Assembly: GCA_964549615.1 (NCBI GenBank) | Contig: CAZJVP010000022.1 | Coordinates: 1-23,493, forward strand | DNA: 23,493 nucleotides | DNA from: an uncultured Thermococci archaeon | Lineage (GTDB): Archaea; CAYQAE01; CAYVLA01 | Direction of reading: 5' to 3' | In this document: positions 737 through 17,203 of the stretch, one piece after another | Layout of the letters: each line of letters starts with the position of its first letter | Numbering within the stretch: the first letter of the stretch is position 1 | The notes under the pieces: model-generated | The model's input: the letters and a program-made list of their open reading frames with translations, nothing else | Told to the model about the DNA's origin: nothing | Database searches by the model: none | Program-made: the position numbers and the translations under genes

Positions 737-1969
737 TCAAGCTTGCTTCCGGGCCTTCCTGAGCGCCGCCTCGACCGCCGCAACCATGTCGTTGAGTTCC
801 TTGCGGGTGTAGTTCGTGCTATTAGGCAGCGAGACAGCCCGCTTGAGCGCCCTCTCGAGCACCGGGCAGCGCCGAATCTTCCGGAACCTGTTCAGGGGAT
901 CCGTGAAGGGCCTGCCCGCCCGGTTTATGGTCGCGCGCGTCTTGAAGATGTCCAGCTCATAGGCCGGCTGCCCGCTGTACACCTGGCCCGCGGGAACTCC
1001 CTCCTCCCTGACAAGCTCGCTGAACTGCCCGGCGGTCATCTTGATCTCGTCCGGAAGGTAGTAGATGATCGAGTAGTGGACTGGACGGGAGCCCGGAATG
1101 ATCTTCCTGGGGATCAGGCCGAGCTGCTCCATCCTGGGATTGAGATACCCAGCGTTGGAGTTCACGATCTCCACGATCTTGTCCAGCTTCCGCAGCTGCG
1201 CCAGCGCCACCGCGGCCTGGAGCTCGGACATCCTGTAATTGAGTCCCAGCGGCCCCGCGTGGGAGCCCGAGAATCTGTTGTATCCGTGATCGTGAAATCT
1301 CACGGCGTTGTCGTAGATTCGGTCGTCATCGGTTGTGACGATCCCCCCCTCCCCGGACGTGATCATCTTGTTCAGCTGCAGGCTGAAACACCCGATGTCG
1401 CCGAGCGCCCCCACCTTCTTTCCCCTCAAGGAGGCGCCGTGCGCGTGGGAACAATCCTCGATCAGGTAGAGGTCCTTCTCCTCCGCGACCTCCCGCAGGC
1501 CCGTCATGTCCGCCGGGAATCCCAGCAGGTGGACGGGAAGGATGGCTTTCGTCCTCGGCGTCACCGCTTCCCTGACGGACCTGGGATCAAGATTCATTGT
1601 CTCGTACTCGACATCTGCGAAGACTGGAACCCCGCCGCACAGGAGGACGGGAGTGATGTTTGCTATGAACGTGACGGGAGGCACTATGACCTCCTCGCCC
1701 GCGCCTATGCCGCAGGCGGCCACCCCCTCGTGCACGGCCGCGGTTCCGCTTGAAACTGCAAGCGCGTGTCTGGCGCCGATGTACCGGGCGAACTCGGCCT
1801 CGAAGGCATCAGCCTTGTGCCTCGGATCGGGCCCGTAGAATCGGAAGAGCGACTTGGATCGGACGACTTCCTGCACCTCCTTGAGTTCCTCCCTGCCTAT
1901 CAGGTTCACCCCGAAGCCGGTGTACGGCCACGGCTCCTTGCGAACCGGCCCACTTTTCCTGCGAGCCAT
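737..1969 (-). CDS. DegT/DnrJ/EryC1/StrS family PLP-dependent (sugar) aminotransferase
   Basis: Motifs SSGTAA, VIVPPVTFIA, ILPVHLLG, IEDCSHAHG (PLP Asp), FSLQLNKMITSGEGG (Schiff-base Lys), NYRMSELQAA. ATG 1969 preferred over GTG 1978 because SD GGTGAGGTG lies 6 nt upstream. Confidence 0.93.
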   Translation of the reverse strand: MARRKSGPVRKEPWPYTGFGVNLIGREELKEVQEVVRSKSLFRFYGPDPRHKADAFEAEFARYIGARHALAVSSGTAAVHEGVAACGIGAGEEVIVPPVTFIANITPVLLCGGVPVFADVEYETMNLDPRSVREAVTPRTKAILPVHLLGFPADMTGLREVAEEKDLYLIEDCSHAHGASLRGKKVGALGDIGCFSLQLNKMITSGEGGIVTTDDDRIYDNAVRFHDHGYNRFSGSHAGPLGLNYRMSELQAAVALAQLRKLDKIVEIVNSNAGYLNPRMEQLGLIPRKIIPGSRPVHYSIIYYLPDEIKMTAGQFSELVREEGVPAGQVYSGQPAYELDIFKTRATINRAGRPFTDPLNRFRKIRRCPVLERALKRAVSLPNSTNYTRKELNDMVAAVEAALRKARKQA

Positions 1970-2014
1970 CCTCGACACCTCACCAACGCGCCTCGGCGGG
2001 AGGGAAGCGATCCC

Positions 2015-2980
2015 CTAGTCTTCCCACCGCCAGTTCATTTGCCTTTCCACCTTCCTTATGTCCTTCAGAAACGGGGCACCTTCCATGGGACCCAGCTTCG
2101 TGACGGCAAAGGCACCGACCGTGTTTCCGAGCCTGCCGCACTCAAGGATTGACCGCCCAGCCACATAGCTCGTCGTGAAACCCGCGTCAAAGCAGTCCCC
2201 AGCACCGGTCGGGTCAACCCTGGGCATCACGCGCTCGATCGGAAACGGCGGCACCCTCACCTCCTGGTTTTCGGTGAAGATGGTGCAACCCTCGGATCCC
2301 ATCTTCAGCGCCACGACCTTCGCATCCCTCAGAAGCGCTCTGCACGCCTTGGCTGGCTCAGCGATGCCTGTAAGCATGCTCGCCTCCTCGCCGCTCGGCA
2401 AGACTATGTCGCACACCTCCAGGACCGGGCGACAGATCTCCCTGACCCTCTCGATGCCGAGAAGCTCGGGCCTTAGGTTGGGATCCAGGCTGATCAACCC
2501 GCCGCGGGACTTGACGATCTTCATGGCCTTGTAGCAGGCCTCGCGGCTGGAATCGCTCACGGAGAGCGCCGAACCCATGAGATGAAGGAGCTTTGCGCCT
2601 GCAAGGTAGGCGGGGTCTACATCGTTAGGACCAAGCGTCCCGGCCGCGGAGTACCTGAGATGGAAGATGAATTTCCTAGAACCGTCCCGGTTGTAGGAGA
2701 CGAACGCGCACCCCGTGGTATGGCCTTCCCTCCTCTTCACCTGGGACACATCCACCTTATCCTCCCTCAACCGGTTCTCCACGACATCTCCGAAATCATC
2801 CGGGCCCAGAACCCCGATGAAGCCGGTCGACGCACCCAGCCTCGCCGCAGCATCTATGTAGATCGCCGGCGCACCACTTGGGAAGGGCCCCATGAACTCG
2901 GCCGGCGTGTTCAGCGGGATCCCTACCTCCTTTCGCATTATCTCTACCAGCATCTCTCCCATGGAGACTATCTCTGGCAT
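2015..2980 (-). CDS. PfkB/ribokinase-family sugar kinase
   Basis: GEMLVE, PSGAPAI..AAARLG, DPNLRPEL and the anion-hole motif DPTGAGDCF. ATG 2980 has SD GGTGAG and follows the YjbQ stop by 1 nt. Confidence 0.94.
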   Translation of the reverse strand: MPEIVSMGEMLVEIMRKEVGIPLNTPAEFMGPFPSGAPAIYIDAAARLGASTGFIGVLGPDDFGDVVENRLREDKVDVSQVKRREGHTTGCAFVSYNRDGSRKFIFHLRYSAAGTLGPNDVDPAYLAGAKLLHLMGSALSVSDSSREACYKAMKIVKSRGGLISLDPNLRPELLGIERVREICRPVLEVCDIVLPSGEEASMLTGIAEPAKACRALLRDAKVVALKMGSEGCTIFTENQEVRVPPFPIERVMPRVDPTGAGDCFDAGFTTSYVAGRSILECGRLGNTVGAFAVTKLGPMEGAPFLKDIRKVERQMNWRWED

Positions 2981-2981
2981 C

Positions 2982-3413
2982 TCACTCACCCAGCACCTGC
3001 ACGCAATACTCCCGGGAAAGGGGTCCGTCCATCTCCACGAAATATATGTTCTGTCTTCCGCCCCTGACGATCTTCCCGTTCTCGACGGGAAAGATCGCGT
3101 TGATCCCTGTCAGCATCCCCCTGAGATGGCAGTGGGCGTTCACCCCGAGCCTGCCGTCGAAGTCGAGATACCTTGCGTGGTGGTAGTTCAGCCCCTCCGG
3201 CACCAGCCTCCTCAGCGTGTCCAACGTGTCCTCCTCAAGGCAGGGCAGGCCCTCGTTCACGGTGATGCCCGTGGTCGTGTGCATCGTTATCACGTTCACG
3301 ATCCCCTGTGTTATTCCGGATTTCCTGACGACCTCCTCCACCTTGTCGGTTATGTTGATCATCTCCATCTCCTTCTTGCTCTGGACCACAAGTTTCTCTA
3401 GGTGCACCTTCAT
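2982..3413 (-). CDS. yjbQ: YjbQ/UPF0047 family protein (secondary thiamine-phosphate synthase family)
   Basis: INITD..V..SGI..G, HTTTGITVNE, NAHCH, Q.IYFVEMDGP..R motifs. ATG 3413 forms an ATGA overlap with the upstream stop and has SD GGAGGTG. Confidence 0.9.
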   Translation of the reverse strand: MKVHLEKLVVQSKKEMEMINITDKVEEVVRKSGITQGIVNVITMHTTTGITVNEGLPCLEEDTLDTLRRLVPEGLNYHHARYLDFDGRLGVNAHCHLRGMLTGINAIFPVENGKIVRGGRQNIYFVEMDGPLSREYCVQVLGE

Positions 3414-4279
3414 CGCCACACCTCCCTCGATCCGAGGAAACGCTCGGCATTCTTTCGGAATATCAGTTCCTGTGCCCCATCACTGAGGCCCAGCGCCTTC
3501 ACGGCCTCGACCATCTTGACCGTTTCGATCCTGGGATAGTTCGAACCGAACATCACCTGGTTTCTCAGCGAGCGCTCCAACCAAGTCGTGGGGATCTGGC
3601 AGGAGAACGTCTGGCGGATGAACTCCATGGGCGTGTCCGCGTAGAGGCACGATGTGTCCGCATGGATCGTGGGATACTTGAGCATCAACGCAACCGTATC
3701 CATGACCCAGGGCCAGCCGAAGTGCGCGACGCAGATCTTCAGCTTCGGGAATCTGGTTGCCACCGCCTCCAGGAGGAGGGGTCGGCAGGGATCGAGCTTG
3801 GAGCCGGGTTCCCAGCTGAGCCCGCTGTGGAAGAGGATGGGCACTCCGAGCTCCGACGCCCTTGCATAGATCGGGAACACCTTCTCGTCGTCGGGCCTGA
3901 ACTCTTGGATGCCTGGAGCCAACTTGAGCCCGACGAGCCCCAACTCCTTGACCGCCGCGTCGAGGTCGTCTGGTGCGGACTTGGAGTGTGGATCAACGCT
4001 GGCGAAGCCCGCGAACCTGTCCTTCGCCCGGTCGACCAGCTCTGCTATCTGCTGGTTGGAGTATATCCTGCATCCCCTGGAGGTGGTGCAGTCTATCGGA
4101 AGCAGCACGGACTTTCGGATTCCCGCAACGTCCATCTGCAGCAGGAAGGTCTCGAGGGGCTGCGGGCGGTTGTGAAGCCCGAACACCTCCTTCGTGACCC
4201 TCAACATCTGCTTGTCCTTCTTCATCGTCTCCTCAACGAGCACCGGGTGCGTATGTATGTCGATCATGCTTCTTTTCAC
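3410..4279 (-). CDS. Amidohydrolase-superfamily protein (Amidohydro_2/COG2159-like TIM barrel)
   Basis: IDIHTH (HxH), RFAGFASVDP, GLKL.P, PILFHSG, AHFGWPW, DTS, FGSNYP, NAERFLG. GTG 4279 overlaps the LarA stop (GTGA). Alternative ATG at 4267. Confidence 0.9.
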   Translation of the reverse strand: MKRSMIDIHTHPVLVEETMKKDKQMLRVTKEVFGLHNRPQPLETFLLQMDVAGIRKSVLLPIDCTTSRGCRIYSNQQIAELVDRAKDRFAGFASVDPHSKSAPDDLDAAVKELGLVGLKLAPGIQEFRPDDEKVFPIYARASELGVPILFHSGLSWEPGSKLDPCRPLLLEAVATRFPKLKICVAHFGWPWVMDTVALMLKYPTIHADTSCLYADTPMEFIRQTFSCQIPTTWLERSLRNQVMFGSNYPRIETVKMVEAVKALGLSDGAQELIFRKNAERFLGSREVWR

Positions 4280-5544
4280 CTTAGTCTGGGCACTATCTCG
4301 GCCGCCCTCTTGAAGGCAAGGACCTCCGGCGAGCTGCCGGCGCCCCTAAGGGCCATCTCCACAGCCTCCTGAGGGTCCCGTGCATACTCGAAGCCGAGGG
4401 TCTCGGTTTGCTTTCTCGTCAATCCGACGGTGTAGACTATCACCCTCATCTTCTCTAGAATCTTGCCCACGTGAAGCATTGCCGCAATCGCACATAGGTC
4501 CTTGAGCTCCCCTGACTCCATCATGGCCTCTGCCCTGGATGGATAAAGGTAACCGTGCTTCTCCAGCTCGGGATGCTCCTTGGACGCTCCTTCCCAGCAG
4601 GGGGAGAACATGACTATGGTGCCCCCGGGCTTCACGGCGAGCTCCGCCGCTTCCAGGGCCTTGACCGCCTGCCACATATCGATGTCGGCCGGGTGCGAGT
4701 CGACCACGGCGATGTCGACCTTGTGATCGATCGGTATGCAGTAGATCTCGTCCGACGCCTCGACGCCCCTGCGATGCGCCTCCACCGGGTGGCCGAAGAA
4801 GCACCCAACCATCCTGCCCCTTCCATCCAGCACCGTGTTTGCGATCGCCTTCAGGCCCGCCTTTGCGGCTATCTCCTCGATCTCGGCCCGCACCGGGTTG
4901 TCCGCCACGCCTAGGATGTCTTCGCCCTCGAACCTTCCCGCGATCACGTGGGTTCGGCCGGTCGTCTCGGCCCCGCTCAGGCCGGGCTGGACTATCTTTC
5001 CGCCCCCCGTGTACCCGGCAACCCTGTGGGCCACGATGTTCCCGAGCCCGATGCTCCAGTCGGATTCCAATATGCTTCGGTTGACCGAGATCGGTATTCC
5101 CGAGCGGGTGGTGCCGAGGTCGGACAACATCGACTCATCCCTCCAGTAGTGGTTGAAAACGTGGAACCTCGACAGCACATCATCGCCCGCCTTCCGTGCC
5201 ATCTCCTCCTTCGTCATGTACCTATGGGTCCCCAAGGCGAACACAACTCGGATGTCCTCGTCCCCCAGCCCGGCCGATTCCAGTTCCCTAAGCAGCGGCG
5301 GGAGCATGAGCCTCGTCGGAGTCTGTCGCGTGATGTCGTCAAGTATGATGAGCGCCTTGTCGCCCTTTGAGACCTGGGAGGCGATCGGGTCGCATCCGAT
5401 CGGCCGGCAGAGCGAGCGCGCGATCATCGTCTCCGCCGGCTCCTTGGGGCGGTGTTCCTTCGGAGCGTGGATGCCGGCCAGCACGCGGTCAGGTATCTCG
5501 ACCCTGATCCGGCCCTTTCCGAGGTGGAAGAAGATCCGTGCCAT
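4276..5544 (-). CDS. larA: LarA-family nickel-pincer-nucleotide-dependent alpha-hydroxy-acid racemase/epimerase (422 aa)
   Basis: DDITRQTP, ALGTHR, H..AGYTGGGKIVQPG, a downstream His (TTGRTH), NPVRAEIEE, WQAVKAL, KPGGTIV...C.EG. True start is probably ATG 5544 (MARIFF), 11 nt after the upstream stop. Substrate is not established. Confidence 0.92.
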   Translation of the reverse strand: MARIFFHLGKGRIRVEIPDRVLAGIHAPKEHRPKEPAETMIARSLCRPIGCDPIASQVSKGDKALIILDDITRQTPTRLMLPPLLRELESAGLGDEDIRVVFALGTHRYMTKEEMARKAGDDVLSRFHVFNHYWRDESMLSDLGTTRSGIPISVNRSILESDWSIGLGNIVAHRVAGYTGGGKIVQPGLSGAETTGRTHVIAGRFEGEDILGVADNPVRAEIEEIAAKAGLKAIANTVLDGRGRMVGCFFGHPVEAHRRGVEASDEIYCIPIDHKVDIAVVDSHPADIDMWQAVKALEAAELAVKPGGTIVMFSPCWEGASKEHPELEKHGYLYPSRAEAMMESGELKDLCAIAAMLHVGKILEKMRVIVYTVGLTRKQTETLGFEYARDPQEAVEMALRGAGSSPEVLAFKRAAEIVPRLR

Positions 5545-5555
5545 GGTCCTACCGG

Positions 5556-6671
5556 TCACAGCGATAGTATGTCGGGACGCTGCACCTTGACCCCCTCCAC
5601 CTCGTGGGTGATGGTGGGCCACGCGCGTGTCTGCGTGACGATGAGCGCGCCGCCCTGCGTGCAGACGATCGTGTCCTCGCTCTTGGTCCCCGCTATCGAG
5701 GGATTCCACGCAAAGGCCTGGTTGGGCCTGACGGATTCCCTGCAGGACGGCGTTGCGAGGAAATCCCTTGTCTGGTAACCGGTCGCGCCCCCTTGGTGGT
5801 GAAACATCCACTGGTCAGGGTAGCCAGTTGCGGCGTAGTCCTCGATTGCCCTCGAAAGAAGCCAGGATACGGACCGTCCCTCTTTGGTCCGCGAGATCAA
5901 CCCGGCGTCGATCCTTGTGCACGCGTCGTGTTTCCTTGCCAGTTCCCGCGGGACGCCTCCCAAGCTCACAAGCCGGGTGGCAGATGCGATCAGGCCCCAC
6001 TTCCTTCCGCACGCGACGAGCATGGCATACTTCCTCAGCTTCCTATCCGTGGGGATGGGGTGACGGTAGAGCTGTATCCTCTTGTCCACCGCAACCAGGA
6101 TGACGGCGGGCAGGACGCCGGAGGCCAGAAGATTGCGCGCAAGCAGGGAGGCGATCTCATGTTCGGTGCGGCCTGGCCTCACCTGCCTGCAAGCCCTCTC
6201 GACAGCTAGGCCGGTAAGCTTGCCGACCTGCTTGTACCGGTCAACCTCCTCCGGCGTGAGGCTGTATCTAAGGGGCGATATCTCGTCGTCCACCATCTCC
6301 GCCCCCGGGAATGGCCAGTCCGTTCCGATCTTTCCGTTTCCGACAAGCTCCCTGATGATCTCGAACCGGCGATCCTCATGCCATGGGGTCTCCCTGACCT
6401 CGAATCCTTGGCCCTCGACCTCCTCGGCAGCCATCCTCCCAGCCTCGATGTTGTTCGTTACCAGGAACTTTTTGTCCGCTGTCACGACGACGGTGGACAC
6501 GCCCCTTCGGTTCGTGATCTCGACGTGGTTGTCGCCCCCGCAGGTGAACCAGGCGAAGTTCTTCGAGGTCGTGAGGCAAAGCGCGGAGAATCCCCTCTCT
6601 TCCAGGAAATTGCGAACCCTCTTCTCCTTCACGGCAATCTCGGACTTGGAGGGCTTCAACGCTTCTCGCAC
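5556..6671 (-). CDS. M24 (pita-bread fold, creatinase/aminopeptidase-P-like) protein lacking most metal ligands
   Basis: Creatinase-like N-domain (NFAWFT), PG.TE.EIA, YRHP, GLIASATR, HHQGGATGY, WNPS, KSEDT. GTG start 7 nt after the oxidoreductase stop. Confidence 0.85.
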   Translation of the reverse strand: MREALKPSKSEIAVKEKRVRNFLEERGFSALCLTTSKNFAWFTCGGDNHVEITNRRGVSTVVVTADKKFLVTNNIEAGRMAAEEVEGQGFEVRETPWHEDRRFEIIRELVGNGKIGTDWPFPGAEMVDDEISPLRYSLTPEEVDRYKQVGKLTGLAVERACRQVRPGRTEHEIASLLARNLLASGVLPAVILVAVDKRIQLYRHPIPTDRKLRKYAMLVACGRKWGLIASATRLVSLGGVPRELARKHDACTRIDAGLISRTKEGRSVSWLLSRAIEDYAATGYPDQWMFHHQGGATGYQTRDFLATPSCRESVRPNQAFAWNPSIAGTKSEDTIVCTQGGALIVTQTRAWPTITHEVEGVKVQRPDILSL

Positions 6672-6678
6672 CCTAGCA

Positions 6679-7836
6679 CTACTCGATGGTGATCCATCTC
6701 CTCTCTCTGTTGCTCTTCAGCATGGCCTCACACAACACGACCTCGTGGTGCCCGTCCGCAAAAGTCGGGAAGTCCGGCGGGGAGGACTTGGGATCCTTTC
6801 CGGCGGCCACGAACTCGTAGAAGTTCCTCATGAACATCTTGATGCCATCTGGGTACGCCTCTGGATGGCCGCCCGGGTAAGCGGCGTAGCGCTTCGCCTC
6901 GGGAAGGAGCAGTGAAGGATCCTTGACGAGCAACTCGTTTGCCCGTTCCCTTCTGCCGATCCACATCTCATTCGGCCTTTCTTGGTCCCAAGCAAGCGCA
7001 CACTTGGACCCGTCGACCTCAATGTACAGCCTGTTCTTCCTTCCTGCCGCCATCTGTGATATTCCGAACAGACCCTTCGCCCCATTTTCCAGCTCGAACA
7101 GCACGCCCGCATAGTCCTCGGTCGTTATGGTCTTCTCCTCGTAGTCCTCGGGACGAAGCTCCTTTCCAAGGTACGTCTCTATCGGCGCCTTAGGCTTCTT
7201 GCGAACGGGCAGGATAGTTCTGAGGTCGGCACACACCTTGACGATATTGAGCCCGGTCACGAACTGGGCTGTGTCGCACCAATGTGATCCAACATCCCCG
7301 ATGGCCCTCGAAGCCCCTCCCACCTCGGGTTCAAGCCTCCAGTTGTAGTCCGTTTCCAGGAATAGCCAGTCCTGTAGGTAGGAGCCCCTGACCGCGTATA
7401 TCTGGCCGACGTCCCCCCTCTTGACCATCGCCCTTGCGTGCTGGACGAGCGGGTAGTGCCTGTAGTTGAAGTTGATCCCGTTCACGACCCCGGCGTCGGA
7501 TGCCAGCTTGACGAGCTTGGAAGACTCCCTGCTGTCCATCGCCAAGGGTTTCTCCGAGATTATGTGCTTGCCAGCCGCGATTATGTCCTGGTTTATCTGG
7601 AAATGGAGGAAGTTCGGCGTGCAGTTGTGCACCACCTCTATCTCAGGGTCCTGCAGGATCTGTCGGTAGTCGCCGAACGCGTTAGGGATGTGCAACTGCT
7701 CCGCCTTCTGCTTCGCAATGGCCTCGTTGGCCTCGGCCAGCGCCTTCACCTCCACGAAACCCAGCCTCCGAACGGCTTCGACGTGAGCTGGACCTATGAA
7801 ACCCGTCCCAATGATTCCGGCCTTGATCCTCCTCAT
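6679..7836 (-). CDS. Gfo/Idh/MocA family NAD(P)-dependent oxidoreductase
   Basis: GIIGTGFIG Rossmann motif, CTPN.LH, SEKPLA, NFNYR, NWR, GDVGSH(W)CD. ATG 7836 has SD GGAGG. First gene of the operon. Confidence 0.95.
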   Translation of the reverse strand: MRRIKAGIIGTGFIGPAHVEAVRRLGFVEVKALAEANEAIAKQKAEQLHIPNAFGDYRQILQDPEIEVVHNCTPNFLHFQINQDIIAAGKHIISEKPLAMDSRESSKLVKLASDAGVVNGINFNYRHYPLVQHARAMVKRGDVGQIYAVRGSYLQDWLFLETDYNWRLEPEVGGASRAIGDVGSHWCDTAQFVTGLNIVKVCADLRTILPVRKKPKAPIETYLGKELRPEDYEEKTITTEDYAGVLFELENGAKGLFGISQMAAGRKNRLYIEVDGSKCALAWDQERPNEMWIGRRERANELLVKDPSLLLPEAKRYAAYPGGHPEAYPDGIKMFMRNFYEFVAAGKDPKSSPPDFPTFADGHHEVVLCEAMLKSNRERRWITIE

Positions 7837-7898
7837 CAAATCCGCCTCCGCGGGACGAACGCGCCCCTCTCGGCCTTGGTCGCCGCACCTTGCTCATC

Positions 7899-7912
7899 CA
7901 TATTAAATGTTG
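7899..7912 (-). promoter_or_regulatory. Putative TATA box for the 7-gene operon
   Basis: ATTTAATA on the minus strand at 7908-7901, ~65 nt upstream of ATG 7836, consistent with a short leader containing the GGAGG SD. Confidence 0.6.
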
Positions 7913-8003
7913 CTAGGTCGCGGGCCGAAATTCGCAAATCCTCGGAGCCATGGACGGGCCGAGCCTTGCCGGGCATTCAGTCCTAGGGCCTCTCCCAGCT
8001 TCC

Positions 8004-8021
8004 CAGAAAAGACCTTTAAGC
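8004..8021 (+). promoter_or_regulatory. Putative BRE+TATA for the CDF transporter
   Basis: CAGAAAAG-ACC-TTTAAG (TATA 8015-8020) ~30 nt upstream of ATG 8049, suggesting a near-leaderless transcript. Confidence 0.6.
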
Positions 8022-8048
8022 GCCAGGTCCGACGCAAGACCTGCTGAG

Positions 8049-8918
8049 ATGCCGGAAAAGGATCCCGACAGGAAAGCTAAGCGGGCAGCGACGATAGGAA
8101 TCTGGGGGAACCTTCTGCTCACAAGCTTCAAGCTCGTCGCCGGCCTGCTGTCGGCCAGCATGGCCGTCATCGCGGACTCCATTCATTCCCTCTCGGATCT
8201 GCTGGCCTCAGCACTGGTCTACGTTGGGCTGCGTGAGGCGAAAAGACCGCCCGACAAGGAACATCCCTTCGGCCATGGTGGCATAGAGGCCGTGATCGGC
8301 CTCATCATTGCGGTGTCCCTTGCGATAATTGCCTATGAGCTGGCAAGGGAGTCGGCGGCGAGGTTGCTCCGCGGCCACTTGCCCGCCATCGGGGCGCTGG
8401 CGATTGTCGCATCGATCCTCTCCATCCTGGTGAAGGAGGCCATGGCCCGATACACCTTCGCGGCTGCGAGGGAGGCAAGAAGCCCGTCGTTGGAGGCCAA
8501 TGCATGGGATCACCGCTCAGACGCGATCTCGTCTGTGGCGGTGCTGTTTGGGGTCACCGCCGCGTTCCTTGGCTTTAGGATACTGGACCCCCTCTTCGCC
8601 CTCGGCATGGCCTTCATAATCGGTGCGATAGGGATCAAGATAGGCAGGAAGAACGTTGAGAACCTGATCGGAACTGTGCCCGACCCGGAGATGGCGTCAA
8701 AGATCCGAAAGCTTGTCGAGGTGCTCCCGGAGGTCAAAAGCGTGCACAAGATTCGCCTACACTACTTCGGGCCCTACGCCGAGGTCGACATGCACGTCAT
8801 CATGAACCCGTACATGACGATCCAGAGGAGCCACGCCGTCACCGACCGCCTCATAGAGAAAGTTAAACAGGACTTTCCCGAGATCGCGTTCGTCAACATC
8901 CACGTCGAGCCGAAGTGA
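8049..8918 (+). CDS. Cation diffusion facilitator (CDF, FieF/YiiP-like) metal transporter
   Basis: S.AVIADSIHSLSD, PPDKEHPFGHG..E, DHRSD, LDP, C-terminal domain with H and IHVEP. About six hydrophobic helices. ATG 8049 chosen from promoter spacing. Confidence 0.94.
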   Translation: MPEKDPDRKAKRAATIGIWGNLLLTSFKLVAGLLSASMAVIADSIHSLSDLLASALVYVGLREAKRPPDKEHPFGHGGIEAVIGLIIAVSLAIIAYELARESAARLLRGHLPAIGALAIVASILSILVKEAMARYTFAAAREARSPSLEANAWDHRSDAISSVAVLFGVTAAFLGFRILDPLFALGMAFIIGAIGIKIGRKNVENLIGTVPDPEMASKIRKLVEVLPEVKSVHKIRLHYFGPYAEVDMHVIMNPYMTIQRSHAVTDRLIEKVKQDFPEIAFVNIHVEPK

Positions 8919-9251: not shown

Positions 9252-10700
9252 TTGGATACAGGCGTGGAGATAATCGTTGATGCGGGCAGCGCGGTGGGGG
9301 ATATCCACCCCCACATATATGGCCACTTCATCGAACACTTGGGCCGATGCATCTACGGCGGCGTCTGGGTGGGTCCTGCGTCCAAGATCCCCAACGTGGA
9401 CGGCTTCCGGAAGGACGTGCTCGAAGCAACGAGGGCGATCCGCCCGCCCATAATCCGCTGGCCCGGGGGGAACTTCGCCTCGGGTTACCACTGGGAGGAC
9501 GGCGTCGGCCCTAGGGACCGGAGGCCGGTTCGTTTCGATCTGGCATGGAAGGGGCTTGAGCCGAACCAGTTCGGGACCGATGAGTTCATCGAATTCTGCC
9601 GGAGGACGGGGGCCGAGCCCTACATCTGCGTGAACATGGGCTCCGGGACTGCGGAGGAGGCGGCGCGCTGGGTCGAATACTGCAACCTTACGACGCAGAC
9701 CCACCATGCCCAGAGGAGAGCAAGCCTGGGACATCCGCAGCCGCATGGAGTTAAGTACTGGGGGCTGGGCAACGAGGCCTACGGCGAGTGGCAGATCGGC
9801 CATTTCTCGGCGGATGGCTACTCGAAAAGCTGCTACGAGTATGCCAAGCTCATGAGGAGGGTTGACCCCTCAATCAAGCTCGTCGCGGTTGGGTGCGACT
9901 CCCCGGACTGGAATCGCCGGGTCCTAGCGGAATGCTGGAAGCTCATCGATTACATATCCCTCCACAAGTACTACAGGGGCGGGGATGACTACTACGACGT
10001 TGTCGCGGCTCCCCTAGAAGCTGAGCGGTCCTTGCGAGACCTTTCCCGGATCGTCGAGACGACCGTCCCAGCACAGCACCCCGTGCACATCGCCTTCGAT
10101 GAGTGGAACCTGTGGTACCCCGAGGCGACGGAAGAGAACGGGCTCCACCAGAGGGCCAGCCTCACGGACGGCATATTCGCATCCGGCATTTTCAACGCAT
10201 TGCACAGGATGTGTCGAACCGTCAAGATGGCCAACCTCGCCCAGCTCGTTAACGTGCTTCCGGCGATAGTCACCGACGACGAGGGAAGGATGTACCTCAA
10301 CCCGACCTACCTTGCCTTCAAGCTGTACGTCCACCACACAGGGACCACGGCACTGAGAACCGTGGCATTCTCCGATACATACCGCTCCCAGAAGTACGGG
10401 CTGAACGAGGTGCCCTACGTTGATGCTTCGGCAAGCCTTGGGCCAAGCGTGCTCCACGTGGCGCTCGTCAATCGTTCCAAGGGACAGGACCTAGAAGCCG
10501 TCATCAAGCTCAGGAACGCAAAGGCACGAGCAGGAGGGTGGGTGATGGAGCTGAATGGGGAAAGGCCGGACTCCTACAATAGCTTCGACCAGCCTGACGC
10601 CGTCGCCCTCAACGAACGGCCGCTTGGCCAGTCAGGTCCCAACATCGAGCTCCAGCTTCCACCCCATTCATCCGCGATCGTGGACCTGCCCATTGCCTAG
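9252..10700 (+). CDS. abfA: GH51 alpha-L-arabinofuranosidase
   Basis: IYGHFIEHLGRCIYGG, RWPGGNFASGYHWEDGVGP, FGTDEF, YWGLGNE (acid/base), AFDEWNLW (nucleophile), MANLAQLVNVL. No signal peptide. TTG start with GAGGG SD. Confidence 0.95.
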   Translation: MDTGVEIIVDAGSAVGDIHPHIYGHFIEHLGRCIYGGVWVGPASKIPNVDGFRKDVLEATRAIRPPIIRWPGGNFASGYHWEDGVGPRDRRPVRFDLAWKGLEPNQFGTDEFIEFCRRTGAEPYICVNMGSGTAEEAARWVEYCNLTTQTHHAQRRASLGHPQPHGVKYWGLGNEAYGEWQIGHFSADGYSKSCYEYAKLMRRVDPSIKLVAVGCDSPDWNRRVLAECWKLIDYISLHKYYRGGDDYYDVVAAPLEAERSLRDLSRIVETTVPAQHPVHIAFDEWNLWYPEATEENGLHQRASLTDGIFASGIFNALHRMCRTVKMANLAQLVNVLPAIVTDDEGRMYLNPTYLAFKLYVHHTGTTALRTVAFSDTYRSQKYGLNEVPYVDASASLGPSVLHVALVNRSKGQDLEAVIKLRNAKARAGGWVMELNGERPDSYNSFDQPDAVALNERPLGQSGPNIELQLPPHSSAIVDLPIA

Positions 10701-16018: not shown

Positions 16019-17158
16019 CTAAAGTTCCCTGTGGAACGTGGAGATGCTCTGCCCGCCTCGCTTCCTGTCCAGGACGACGTCCTCTATCCTGAGCCCGCCG
16101 ACGCCCCGCTTGGCTATCCCGGGCTCAACCGTGTGGACGTAGTTTGCGTGGAGCACATCCTGCGAATCGGGCTTGATGTAGGGCGGCTCATGGCAGGCCA
16201 CCCCAATGCCGTGGCCCAAAAACGGTGGAAACCCGTACCCCGCCTTCGCTATGGCGTCCCTGGCAGCTTTGTCCACCTGGTTCGATGATATGCCATCCCT
16301 TATGCTGTCGATGGCGGCTTGCTGGCCCTCCAAGAGGGCTGCCCATATCTTGCGCTGCTCCGGACTGGGCGTCCCCACGACCCAGGTTCGGGTCAGGTCA
16401 CACCAGTAGCCGTCAACGCAGGTGTTGAGCTCGATGAGAACTGCATCGCCGGCCTTGATCCTCCTCTGGGAACTGATGTTGTAGGGCCTAGGTGCTTTAA
16501 GCGAGTTCGGGCCGGACATGACGAAGGCAAAGGCCCTCGCGACGGCCGCCTTGCCCTTGTAGCCGAAGCCCTCCTCGTATATAGTCTTCTCGCACGCGGC
16601 AGCGACCTGCGTCTCCTTCACCCCTTCGTCCAGAACGTCGTAGGCTGAAGTCAGGCCCTCCCCGGAAAGTTCCGCCGCGAGCCTCATCGCGGCTATCTCG
16701 CCGGGCGTCTTGAGCTTCCTCATCTCCAGGATGAGGTCGGATGCGTCGACGAGCTCGCAGGAAGGCAGGGCTTTCTTCAAGAATTCAAGATGCTGGAACC
16801 CGACGTGGGCATTCTCCACGCCGATCGCGTTCCCTGCGATCAGCTCGAACGACCCCTCGTAGCCAACCTTCCCCTTCACCCCGAGCTCGTTCAGCAGGCG
16901 GGAGGCCTCCTCGTACGGCTTGCCAGTGTAGATCCTCACGTCCCTTGCCCACGCCTTCCCCGCGAACTCGACCTCGTAGTCGGGCGCCAAGAGAACCGGT
17001 TCGCCCTCTGCGGGCACCACGGAGAACGACCAGCCCCTGATCGGCCAGTACCCTGAGAAGTAGAGGACGTTCTCCGAGTTCCTGCAGACGATGAAGTCCA
17101 CGCCCCGTTCGCGCATCATGGACTGTGCCCTTTGGACCTTGGCCTTCTCGTACCTCAC
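16019..17158 (-). CDS. Xaa-Pro peptidase family (M24B) protein, divergent
   Basis: ENVLYFSG, R.LKT..EI, GYWCDLTRT, GHGIG...HE, TVEPG, GLRIEDVV. GTG start with GAGGAG upstream. Confidence 0.92.
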   Translation of the reverse strand: MRYEKAKVQRAQSMMRERGVDFIVCRNSENVLYFSGYWPIRGWSFSVVPAEGEPVLLAPDYEVEFAGKAWARDVRIYTGKPYEEASRLLNELGVKGKVGYEGSFELIAGNAIGVENAHVGFQHLEFLKKALPSCELVDASDLILEMRKLKTPGEIAAMRLAAELSGEGLTSAYDVLDEGVKETQVAAACEKTIYEEGFGYKGKAAVARAFAFVMSGPNSLKAPRPYNISSQRRIKAGDAVLIELNTCVDGYWCDLTRTWVVGTPSPEQRKIWAALLEGQQAAIDSIRDGISSNQVDKAARDAIAKAGYGFPPFLGHGIGVACHEPPYIKPDSQDVLHANYVHTVEPGIAKRGVGGLRIEDVVLDRKRGGQSISTFHREL

Positions 17159-17191: not shown

Positions 17192-17203
17192 GGATATAAA
17201 TTG
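17192..17203 (-). promoter_or_regulatory. Putative TATA box for the peptidase gene
   Basis: TTTATAT on the minus strand (17200-17194), ~36 nt upstream of GTG 17158. Confidence 0.6.

Follow-up and report, generated by a model that had tools for sequence, protein, structure and literature searches.

A family-restricted five-gene core of M24-like, LarA, Amidohydro_2, YjbQ and PfkB genes in uncultured archaea, with a possible role in the use of Amadori-like sugar derivatives

The DNA analyzed here (the window) is an entire 23.5 kb contig (CAZJVP010000022.1, our C22) of an uncultured Thermococci archaeon, whose genome (G000) comprises 3.2 Mb in 104 contigs and is 99.5% complete. It carries seven co-directional open reading frames (ORFs), all on the minus strand and spanning positions 737-7839, which an initial annotation made from the sequence alone had presented as a candidate undescribed sugar or amino-sugar pathway. 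Comparison with related loci shows that this operon consists of an invariant core of five genes (M24-like, LarA, Amidohydro_2, YjbQ and PfkB), joined by an optional Gfo/Idh/MocA gene and a loosely attached DegT gene. It is a mosaic restricted to one archaeal family and not a recurrent seven-gene pathway, and neither Gfo nor DegT is a fixed part of it. The best explanation for this arrangement is that two modules have been joined around LarA: module A, a sugar oxidoreductase with the M24-like protein, and module B, an Amidohydro_2–YjbQ pair with a PfkB kinase nearby. As to function, we tentatively favor a lineage-specific catabolic or salvage route for an N-substituted, Amadori-like (glycated amine) sugar derivative or a close relative, a reading that we regard as possible and still short of probable.

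Results

Gene layout and conservation of the core

In the order in which they would be transcribed, the seven genes are:

6679..7839, minus strand: Gfo/Idh/MocA NAD(P)-dependent sugar oxidoreductase, 385-386 aa (PF01408 84.9 bits, PF22725 85.6 bits); accessory first gene
5556..6671, minus strand: M24-like protein with the two-domain creatinase/prolidase fold, 371 aa (PF00557 43.3 bits, PF01321 24.9 bits, a weak match); core
4276..5544, minus strand: LarA family, putative nickel-pincer nucleotide (NPN)-dependent 2-hydroxy-acid racemase/epimerase, 422 aa (PF09861 190.9 bits, PF21113 38.8 bits); core
3410..4279, minus strand: Amidohydro_2 TIM-barrel protein, 289 aa (PF04909 139.8 bits); core; start overlaps the LarA stop by 4 nt
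2982..3413, minus strand: YjbQ/UPF0047, 143 aa (PF01894 107.4 bits, TIGR00149); core; overlaps the Amidohydro_2 stop by 4 nt
2015..2980, minus strand: PfkB-family sugar kinase, 321 aa (PF00294 174.1 bits); core; 1 nt past YjbQ
737..1969, minus strand: DegT/DnrJ/EryC1 pyridoxal phosphate-dependent aminotransferase, 410 aa (PF01041 307.4 bits); last gene, loosely attached

The ORFs of the window bear out the gene order and positions of the initial annotation, Pfam confirmed the family call for each of the seven genes, and the gaps of 7, 11, −4, −4, 1 and 45 nt were reproduced with the start codons used there. Lying on one strand, separated by short gaps or overlaps and preceded by one conserved upstream promoter element, the genes are predicted to form a single operon. 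When compared with NCBIfam, six of the seven proteins fall below the cut-off of every model, and YjbQ alone passes (the function-unknown TIGR00149).

The closest genomes in the collection are archaeal; the host's GTDB phylum contains five species only, and a sister genus has been deposited as 'Candidatus Hadarchaeota archaeon'. A search for sequencing runs gave three DNA runs from hot-spring metagenomes and no RNA run; the one DNA run that contains the stretch is possibly its source. Related loci are present in genomes G002, G003 and G004 and on metagenome contigs L097-L100 (L096 is 100% identical and not independent). The order M24-like, LarA, Amidohydro_2, YjbQ, PfkB is consistent in eight of eight loci from at least three genera, two contigs ending inside the cluster (L097 stops after Amidohydro_2). 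Wherever both neighbors are visible, the gaps within the core measure 9-14, −7 to +2, −4 to −1 and 1 nt in these eight loci.

The two outer genes behave differently from this core. Gfo, which the initial annotation had listed as the first gene of the operon, is present in six of the eight loci and missing from the other two, and G004 (96% complete, from a sister genus) has no Gfo orthologue genome-wide, its best match being 32% identical. The distance from PfkB to DegT is 45 nt only in the source genome and 347, 1090, 1174, 2074 and 2099 nt in relatives. DegT is thus set apart in five of the six loci that show both genes, with other genes between them in four. Such inserted genes (13662-14642 in L098; 8031-9020 and 6967-8058 in L099) include a DcrB/PsbP-like gene and, in L099, an opposite-strand Mem_trans (AEC-family) transporter gene; both kinds of insert are absent from the window and from G002. 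These distances weaken the proposal that DegT belongs to the operon and supplies a transamination step.

Two further genes lie beyond the start of the operon in the window:

7950-8918, plus strand: CDF cation-efflux gene, divergent from the operon
9252-10700, plus strand: glycoside hydrolase family 51 (GH51) alpha-L-arabinofuranosidase (AbfA) gene, divergent, 1.4 kb upstream of the operon

The flanks are rearranged while the core stays intact: L014 and L099 have none of the Gfo, CDF and AbfA genes in front of the core, and in L015, L097 and L098 the GH51 and CDF genes are syntenic. The Band7 gene that follows DegT is syntenic in all related loci, and part of the conservation is therefore plain vertical synteny.

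A conserved promoter element

The initial annotation had placed one promoter (7901-7908) ahead of the Gfo gene. The element is indeed present and conserved in relatives, which supports the description of a compact unit behind one conserved promoter. The sequence ATTTAATAT occupies 7908-7900 on the minus strand, inside the 110-nt spacer that the operon shares with the divergent CDF gene, and belongs to the following feature:

7912-7900, minus strand: putative promoter CAACATTTAATAT, a TATA-like box with conserved upstream bases, ~64 nt before the ATG at 7836

A motif of 13-14 nt, CAACATT(T)AATAT, is shared between genera and kept 60-75 nt before the first gene in seven of the seven related loci examined (the window, L013, L014, L015, L098, L099 and L100, with L096 and L097 left out). 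In two loci without Gfo it precedes the M24-like gene, and it occurs a single time in the 3.2 Mb genome. Because the motif is conserved, follows the core where Gfo is missing and is unique in the genome, a real and operon-specific promoter or operator is well supported. We infer on this good evidence that it serves in one of these two capacities, and the region may contain an operator besides the TATA box. By way of comparison, the 23.5 kb window has 10 A/T-only runs of at least 7 nt, the promoter among them, and several lie directly 5' of gene starts. One A/T run (3040-3047) was considered as an internal promoter before PfkB and rejected, as it represents the codons of a conserved N-I-Y-F in YjbQ and varies like coding sequence.

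The gene set outside the family

Recurrence of the gene set in other genomes was the test that the initial annotation had set for its own proposal. The full set of seven was found in one uncultured archaeal family only, where the flanks are syntenic too. In G001, the single genome of the neighboring family in the same class (98% complete), the orthologues of LarA, Amidohydro_2, Gfo, M24-like and PfkB are all absent. A search of 200 other archaeal genomes with Amidohydro_2 gave no match above 38% identity, and the archaeal matches at 28-38% identity (in G165 and others) were treated as paralogues, with no YjbQ or other operon gene adjoining. The 401 Chloroflexota genomes searched contain one Amidohydro_2 orthologue and neither the five- nor the seven-gene set. 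Within 10 kb of the M24-like gene in 79 bacterial loci (40-52% identity, tblastn), YjbQ was found in none, LarA in 2, Amidohydro_2 in 3 (24-32% identity), PfkB in 1, DegT in 1 and Gfo in 5. Likewise, M24-like, Amidohydro_2 and YjbQ are each absent from 75 LarA loci (40-47% identity), where PfkB was found in 2, DegT in 5 and Gfo in 5. The claim that the operon is built around LarA is not borne out by these counts.

The same figures raise the alternative that the operon is a co-transcribed, lineage-specific array that serves no single pathway, its pieces (Gfo with M24-like; LarA; Amidohydro_2 with YjbQ and PfkB; DegT) having stayed linked through inheritance in a compact genome. Besides the scarcity of these associations outside the family, the syntenic flanking Band7 gene and the comings and goings of DegT and Gfo speak for such an array. 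Additionally, further tblastn matches in G000 number more than 20 for Gfo/Idh/MocA-like, 10 for DegT-like and 6 for PfkB-like genes, so that chance neighbors from the Gfo and DegT families are likely. Nevertheless, every related locus has kept the core order with its near-identical overlaps and tiny gaps despite rearrangement on both sides, the promoter stayed with the core when Gfo was lost, and the core orthologues (LarA, Amidohydro_2, M24-like and PfkB) are jointly absent from G001. We therefore consider a mere array rather improbable. By the same counts of paralogues, sugar oxidoreductases and sugar aminotransferases are unusually numerous in the host archaeon.

The M24-like protein and module A

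The M24-like protein belongs to a large family (4819 proteins at E ≤ 1e-10 among 8000 candidates scored) that databases annotate only as 'M24 family metallopeptidase'. Its best NCBIfam model is archaeal PepQ, at 21.8 bits against a cut-off of 630, and the ESM Atlas returned clusters auto-named 'Peptidase M24' only, with no structure record. An alignment of 24 sequences from many phyla (A1) has 63 invariant columns and defines the family motifs HHQGG.TGY, QAF/YAWNPS and NPS..G.K.EDT. The predicted model (predicted local distance difference test score, pLDDT, 92.5) matches prolidases, creatinases and the ectoine hydrolase DoeA among its top 32 ranks, with template modeling (TM) scores of 0.71-0.80 at 14-20% identity. 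On alignment with the P. furiosus prolidase 1PV9, the final Glu is the sole metal ligand retained out of five, and the others are replaced by Ala, Ala, Gly and a non-acidic residue; we take the ligand positions of 1PV9 to be Asp, Asp, His, Glu and Glu. The protein is thus a member of the family by its pita-bread catalytic and Creatinase_N domains and lacks the five-ligand metal site.

A second M24 gene in the window (16019-17158, minus strand) encodes a canonical Xaa-Pro peptidase (PF00557 169.5 bits), in contrast to the metal-ligand-free protein of the operon, and has its own TATA-like run at 17194-17202, 36-44 nt upstream.

In bacteria, the genes next to members of the M24-like family are largely those of sugar metabolism. 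The immediate same-strand neighbors (n = 97) in the 79 loci include FGGY kinase (12), zinc-dependent alcohol dehydrogenase (6), Gfo (6), DctP of the tripartite ATP-independent periplasmic (TRAP) type (5), galactokinase (4) and AraA (3), and within 6 kb an FGGY kinase is found in 18 of the loci, an AraD-like aldolase in 10 and AraA in 9. Many of these genes are close to araA, araD or abfA. On the Thermus thermophilus plasmid pHB5018c (L209, 148-9739) the gene order is xylF, permease, ATPase, ROK, xylA, xylB, M24, Gfo and short-chain dehydrogenase/reductase (SDR), with xylA through SDR overlapping in turn; Thermus thus offers a cultivable system in which to study the family. A Pantoea plasmid shows the order major facilitator superfamily (MFS) transporter, GMC oxidoreductase, M24 and SDR, and in Nostoc the M24 gene adjoins malQ. 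The Gfo partners of the bacterial genes are 23-30% identical to the Gfo of the operon. As Gfo adjoins M24-like genes in bacteria too, Gfo followed by M24-like is a recurrent pairing at the family level.

The Amidohydro_2–YjbQ pair and module B

Amidohydro_2 has zero NCBIfam matches. Its nearest solved structure is the uncharacterized BB4693 (3IRS), followed by decarboxylases and hydratases (ACMSD, LigW, LigJ), and its subfamily takes in 1570 proteins at E ≤ 1e-15, many of them bacterial at 53-59% identity. In an alignment of 21 sequences (A4), the N-terminal HxH (H9, H11) is nearly invariant, and Asn247 in the motif FGSN[YF]PR is invariant in all 21, the position being assigned by this sequence motif; BB4693 has Ala there. 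We take this position to be that of the strand-8 Asp of the amidohydrolase superfamily, a metal ligand or catalytic base. By its Pfam match and its HxH the protein belongs to PF04909, and it appears to lack the strand-8 Asp.

The initial annotation had ascribed non-canonical active-site residues to four members of the operon. This description fits the M24-like protein and Amidohydro_2 only; LarA is canonical (see below), and the remaining cases were not reproduced. By eye, and by motifs that we assume to be the diagnostic ones, Gfo (EKP; D-x-x-x-H), PfkB (GAGD) and DegT (the Lys in SLQLNK) look canonical.

Bacterial Amidohydro_2 genes of at least 40% identity with visible context have YjbQ directly downstream, overlapping or abutting, in three of three cases. 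The first is the Chloroflexota genome G447, where the pair is 40% and 43% identical to that of the operon. On a Niallia taxi megaplasmid, SIS, Amidohydro_2, YjbQ and PfkB genes follow in a row (pair 41% and 52% identical), and plasmid 2 of E. faecium DO carries amidohydrolase, YjbQ, amino-acid permease, GntR, frlD, GntR and SIS genes (pair 48% and 41% identical). The E. faecium Amidohydro_2 matches residues 80-282 of the archaeal protein only and is therefore shorter at the N-terminus. Each of the three clusters has, besides a SIS protein, an amino-acid transporter, an FrlD-like kinase of the PfkB family and a regulator of the GntR family (with a UTRA domain in G447 and Niallia), and they are homologous to each other, with identities of 33-45% for the FrlD-like kinases, 32-54% for the SIS proteins and 55% for the permease. 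From this gene content we classify all three as homologous, predicted frl-like (Amadori compound) systems. The PfkB of the operon has the same position after YjbQ and belongs to another subfamily, with 22-25% full-length identity to the FrlD-like kinases.

The subfamily of this YjbQ is small, with 10 representatives at E ≤ 1e-30 among 1.84 billion; a plasmid library has just four records with YjbQ matches at E ≤ 1e-15, headed by those of Niallia and E. faecium. Two fragmentary proteins also link the genes, P0370 joining Amidohydro_2 to YjbQ and P0371 joining YjbQ to the PfkB C-terminus. A natural Amidohydro_2–YjbQ fusion was rejected for P0370, which is partial at its start and frameshift-like towards its end and was therefore counted as adjacency evidence only. 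Together, these associations point to Amidohydro_2 and YjbQ functioning as partners. Prediction of a complex between them gave a median score of 0.55 (best control 0.00), with runs agreeing in at least 86% of contacts and a pLDDT of at least 90 for the partner. Of 80 solved complexes, 58 reached the mark used for such predictions, as did 2 of 110 mismatched pairs, and those that reached it with a score of 0.60 or less comprise just 7 of the 80 solved complexes and both mismatches, so that the modeled complex receives weak support.

Several further observations concern these genes. The E. faecium cluster (L208, 6079-14133) adjoins an IS1216 copy and aminoglycoside and streptothricin resistance genes. 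The plasmid match H43 (Candidatus Thiodictyon syntrophicum, 43469-43891) is a YjbQ homologue with 36% identity that adjoins a gene with a RuBisCO large-subunit-like domain. The YjbQ homologues P0446 and P0499 are fused, one to an N-terminal domain of ~250 aa and the other to a C-terminal region that looks polyprenyl synthase-like by eye.

LarA and its cofactor genes

Section 6 of a paper on the family (PMC11770544) gives His108 and His174 of L. plantarum LarA as catalytic residues and Arg75, Lys184 and His200 as NPN-binding residues. In the operon LarA, R73, H107, H173, K183, H199, Q292 and K295 align to R75, H108, H174, K184, H200, Q295 and K298 of the L. plantarum enzyme (6C1W), so that the predicted catalytic and NPN-binding set is complete and canonical. 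Its Lar_N (PF09861) and LarA_C (PF21113) matches both exceed the Pfam cut-offs. At the specificity positions, R174 and V175 stand in place of F175-F176, and I353 and A354 (from the Mar2 alignment) in place of W358-T359. The signatures given in the same paper are F,F,W,E/Q for LAR, E,V,A,H for GntE, Y,F,H/Q,T for HGR and H/Q,K for MAR (PMC11770544), and none of the four fits the operon LarA. Its best NCBIfam model is the LarAH6 malate racemase NF052593, at 301.2 bits against a cut-off of 500. A malate racemase was rejected, given this score below the cut-off and the absent MAR signature (I353-A354 at the H-K of Mar2). The LarA orthologue group (at least 64% identity) is found in 17 clusters, after which identity drops to 45%.

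Genes for the cofactor lie elsewhere in the genome, with LarC (PF01969, 338.9 bits) on contig C78 and LarE (TIGR00268, 286.3 bits against a cut-off of 150) on C3. Two AIRC-domain matches were found, of which a 277-aa frame on C104 is a LarB candidate only. A second LarA homologue (30-38% identical) is apparently split over the contig ends of C68 (11396-11857) and C89 (1-909), which brings the LarA-family genes of this genome to two or more. Two YjbQ paralogues flank larC at ~3 kb on either side on C78 (L194: 5021-5467, 7973-9670 and 12029-12442), one of them following myo-inositol-1-phosphate-synthase-like and HAD phosphatase genes. A functional YjbQ–LarC link was rejected, as the genes between them are unrelated (ABC transporter, GNAT acetyltransferase).

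The Gfo, PfkB and DegT proteins

The best NCBIfam model for Gfo is the levoglucosan dehydrogenase NF052479 (196.9 bits, against a cut-off of 650), and its nearest solved structures are 4H3V, 4GQA and 6A3F. PfkB scores best with the tagatose kinase (ketohexose 6-kinase) NF049991 (294 bits, against 420), followed by IolC (155 bits) and 2-keto-3-deoxygluconate (KDG) kinase (144 bits); the nearest solved structure is 3IQ0, and then the KDG kinase of T. thermophilus. For DegT the best model is PseC (199 bits, against 423.5), and the nearest solved structures are the Kdo8N transaminase 5K8B and then perosamine synthases and scyllo-inosose aminotransferases.

Some of these matches point to the breakdown of an aminocyclitol or inositol-type compound, with Gfo as inositol or inosamine dehydrogenase, DegT as scyllo-inosose or inosamine aminotransferase and PfkB as an IolC-like kinase, a scheme that we nevertheless judge very improbable. 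Glutamine:scyllo-inosose and 2-deoxy-scyllo-inosose aminotransferases score 175-184 bits with DegT, and the matches of Gfo include IolG (99.5 bits) and solved scyllo-inositol dehydrogenases (109-112 bits). These would combine with the IolC match of PfkB and with the KduI/IolB genes that directly adjoin LarA homologues (7 of 114 neighbors scanned). All these scores are far under the family cut-offs, however, and DegT and Gfo are precisely the two genes that are unfixed in the cluster. The operon is also devoid of IolE, IolD, IolB and aldolase homologues by Pfam, and we know of no role for M24-like, Amidohydro_2 or YjbQ proteins in the known inositol routes.

Discussion

A possible route for an Amadori-like compound

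We favor the Amadori-like reading for three reasons: the sole informative contexts of module B are frl-like, the fold of the M24-like protein is that of small-molecule C-N hydrolases, and PfkB is closest to a ketohexose kinase. The N-substituted or amino-sugar substrate put forward in the initial annotation accordingly has some support, from the occurrence of Amidohydro_2–YjbQ with a nearby PfkB in three frl-like bacterial clusters. In such a route, PfkB would first phosphorylate the ketose part of the substrate, and Amidohydro_2 and YjbQ, possibly in a complex, would next carry out a non-redox hydrolysis, hydration or decarboxylation. The creatinase-like M24 enzyme would then split a C-N (or C-O) bond without a metal, Gfo would oxidize a ring hydroxyl, and LarA would finally invert C2 of the resulting 2-hydroxy acid, allowing it to enter central metabolism.

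Several points weigh against this scheme. The SIS (FrlB-type) deglycase, the transporter and the GntR-family regulator of frl systems are absent from the seven genes and the flanking genes scanned. PfkB is no FrlD orthologue (49.6 bits on the FrlD model NF007321, against a cut-off of 247), and an Amadori scheme requires no 2-hydroxy-acid epimerase, which leaves the role given to LarA unneeded. The neighbors of LarA relatives at 40-47% identity (114 ORFs) include MFS transporters (11), KduI/IolB (7), four-carbon acid-sugar kinases (7), FAD oxidoreductases (7), TRAP binding proteins (6), FGGY kinases (5) and Gfo (5), and therefore indicate a sugar-acid setting. The transporters next to bacterial M24-like genes are of sugar and acid types (ribose/xylose-type ABC, TRAP, tripartite tricarboxylate) and not amino-acid transporters, and the C-N cleavage assigned to the M24-like protein is a prediction from its modeled fold. 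Module B rests on three bacterial contexts and two low-quality fragments, with a single Amidohydro_2 orthologue in the 401 Chloroflexota genomes and weak support from the complex prediction. Finally, the seven-gene set is known from one family only and the flanking Band7 gene is syntenic too, so that vertical inheritance could explain part of the conservation.

A second scheme is the oxidative catabolism of a neutral sugar, e.g., the L-arabinose that the GH51 arabinofuranosidase encoded nearby would release. In this scheme the aldose would be oxidized by Gfo to a lactone, which either Amidohydro_2 or the M24-like protein would open, LarA would epimerize the aldonate at C2 in the manner of GntE, and PfkB would phosphorylate the keto-deoxy or ketose product. 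Amidohydro_2 (PF04909) includes sugar lactonases, and Gfo matches sugar 1- and 3-dehydrogenase models, among them the haloarchaeal xylose dehydrogenase Gfo6 at 73.8 bits. LarA homologues epimerize D-gluconate and D-mannonate at C2, according to two papers (PMC7583248; PMC11770544). Further points in favor are the match of PfkB to KDG/KDGal kinase (144 bits) with the T. thermophilus KDG kinase as its second-best solved match, the frequency of AraA (9 of 79) and AraD-like aldolase (10 of 79) in M24-like loci, and the GH51 gene 1.4 kb upstream, syntenic in L015, L097 and L098. In addition, a deltaproteobacterial locus (L050) brings together TctC, DctP, M24-like, PfkB, 2-keto-3-deoxy-6-phosphogluconate aldolase, LarA (41% identity), zinc-dependent alcohol dehydrogenase and 2-hydroxyacid dehydrogenase genes. 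Yet the operon has neither a sugar-acid dehydratase nor an aldolase, and the nearest solved relatives of Amidohydro_2 (ACMSD, LigW, LigJ and BB4693) are not lactonases. For LarA, the hexonate-epimerase model NF052594 gives just 88 bits and the GntE signature (E,V,A,H) is missing. Gfo can be dispensed with, as its absence from G004 shows, and the presence of Amidohydro_2–YjbQ in frl-like clusters is left unexplained. On balance, this scheme strikes us as unlikely, if still worth serious attention.

Whichever substrate is involved, the view that the operon does not encode a described pathway is tenable. No match was found among the pathways checked, and the best NCBIfam models stay below their cut-offs, the TIGR00149 match of YjbQ excepted. 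Searches of the open-access literature, the LarA context tables of PMC7583248 (which may list the neighborhood of this subgroup) aside, gave no description of the gene set, of the Amidohydro_2–YjbQ pair or of a sugar-linked M24-like family. No native function has been assigned to the conserved families or subfamilies of four core proteins, namely the M24-like family, the Asn-type Amidohydro_2 subfamily, YjbQ/UPF0047 and an unclassified LarA subgroup, and the operon and its bacterial contexts offer testable substrate classes for all four. The two modules and the conserved promoter are the most useful new leads.

Returning to the Amadori-like reading, its truth would mean a new physiological role for the nickel-pincer cofactor and would show how a hot-spring archaeon handles heat-driven glycation; Amadori-type compounds form spontaneously at high temperature. 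A wider claim can be attached to it: that glycated amines are broken down or repaired without FrlB in thermophilic archaea and also in certain bacteria, with the metal-free M24 protein and a two-subunit Amidohydro_2–YjbQ enzyme performing the C-N and rearrangement chemistry and LarA correcting sugar-acid stereochemistry. Such an extension is distinctly improbable. If true, it would provide the first native functions for UPF0047/YjbQ, for Asn-type Amidohydro_2 and for the bacterial M24-like family, with its thousands of homologues. Should the Amadori-like reading fail, enzyme discovery would still have a clearly delimited unit of five genes in this locus. In neither case is it a widespread pathway.

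Comparison with known systems

The roles of the frl genes in E. coli (frlABCDR) and B. subtilis (frlBONMD) are outlined in PMC5270733. The operon resembles these clusters in its PfkB-family kinase, and the only close bacterial relatives of the Amidohydro_2–YjbQ pair that we found are in frl-like clusters, in one of which (Niallia) the order Amidohydro_2, YjbQ, PfkB is that of the operon. The role of the pair in frl-like clusters is undescribed in the open-access literature searched. The SIS deglycase, transporter and GntR regulator belong to the frl clusters and not to the operon, the kinases are of different PfkB subfamilies, and M24-like, LarA and Gfo are genes of the operon that form no part of frl clusters.

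For Gfo, the closest parallel is the levoglucosan dehydrogenase LgdA (6A3F), whose type scores highest among the NCBIfam models and which is also close among the solved structures, and oxidation of a ring could likewise start the breakdown here. The operon differs from LgdA pathways in that no xylose-isomerase-like TIM-barrel eliminase or hydratase genes follow Gfo, which is itself dispensable in a sister genus.

The M24-like protein shares its two-domain fold with creatinase, prolidase and DoeA. Creatinase works without metal, and the operon protein is creatinase-like in being without a dinuclear metal site. It differs from all three in its own invariant motifs and its 14-20% identity, and its genes stand among sugar kinases, oxidoreductases and transporters and not among peptide or osmolyte genes.

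LarA, finally, is alike to the malate racemase Mar2, to the broad-spectrum racemase 9EID and to GntE in its Lar_N and LarA_C domains, both catalytic His residues and the NPN-binding Arg, Lys and His. It differs from GntE, a D-gluconate 2-epimerase, in its signature and resembles it in a sugar-related gene context; by sequence it is closest to Mar2 (6D6Z, 201 bits).

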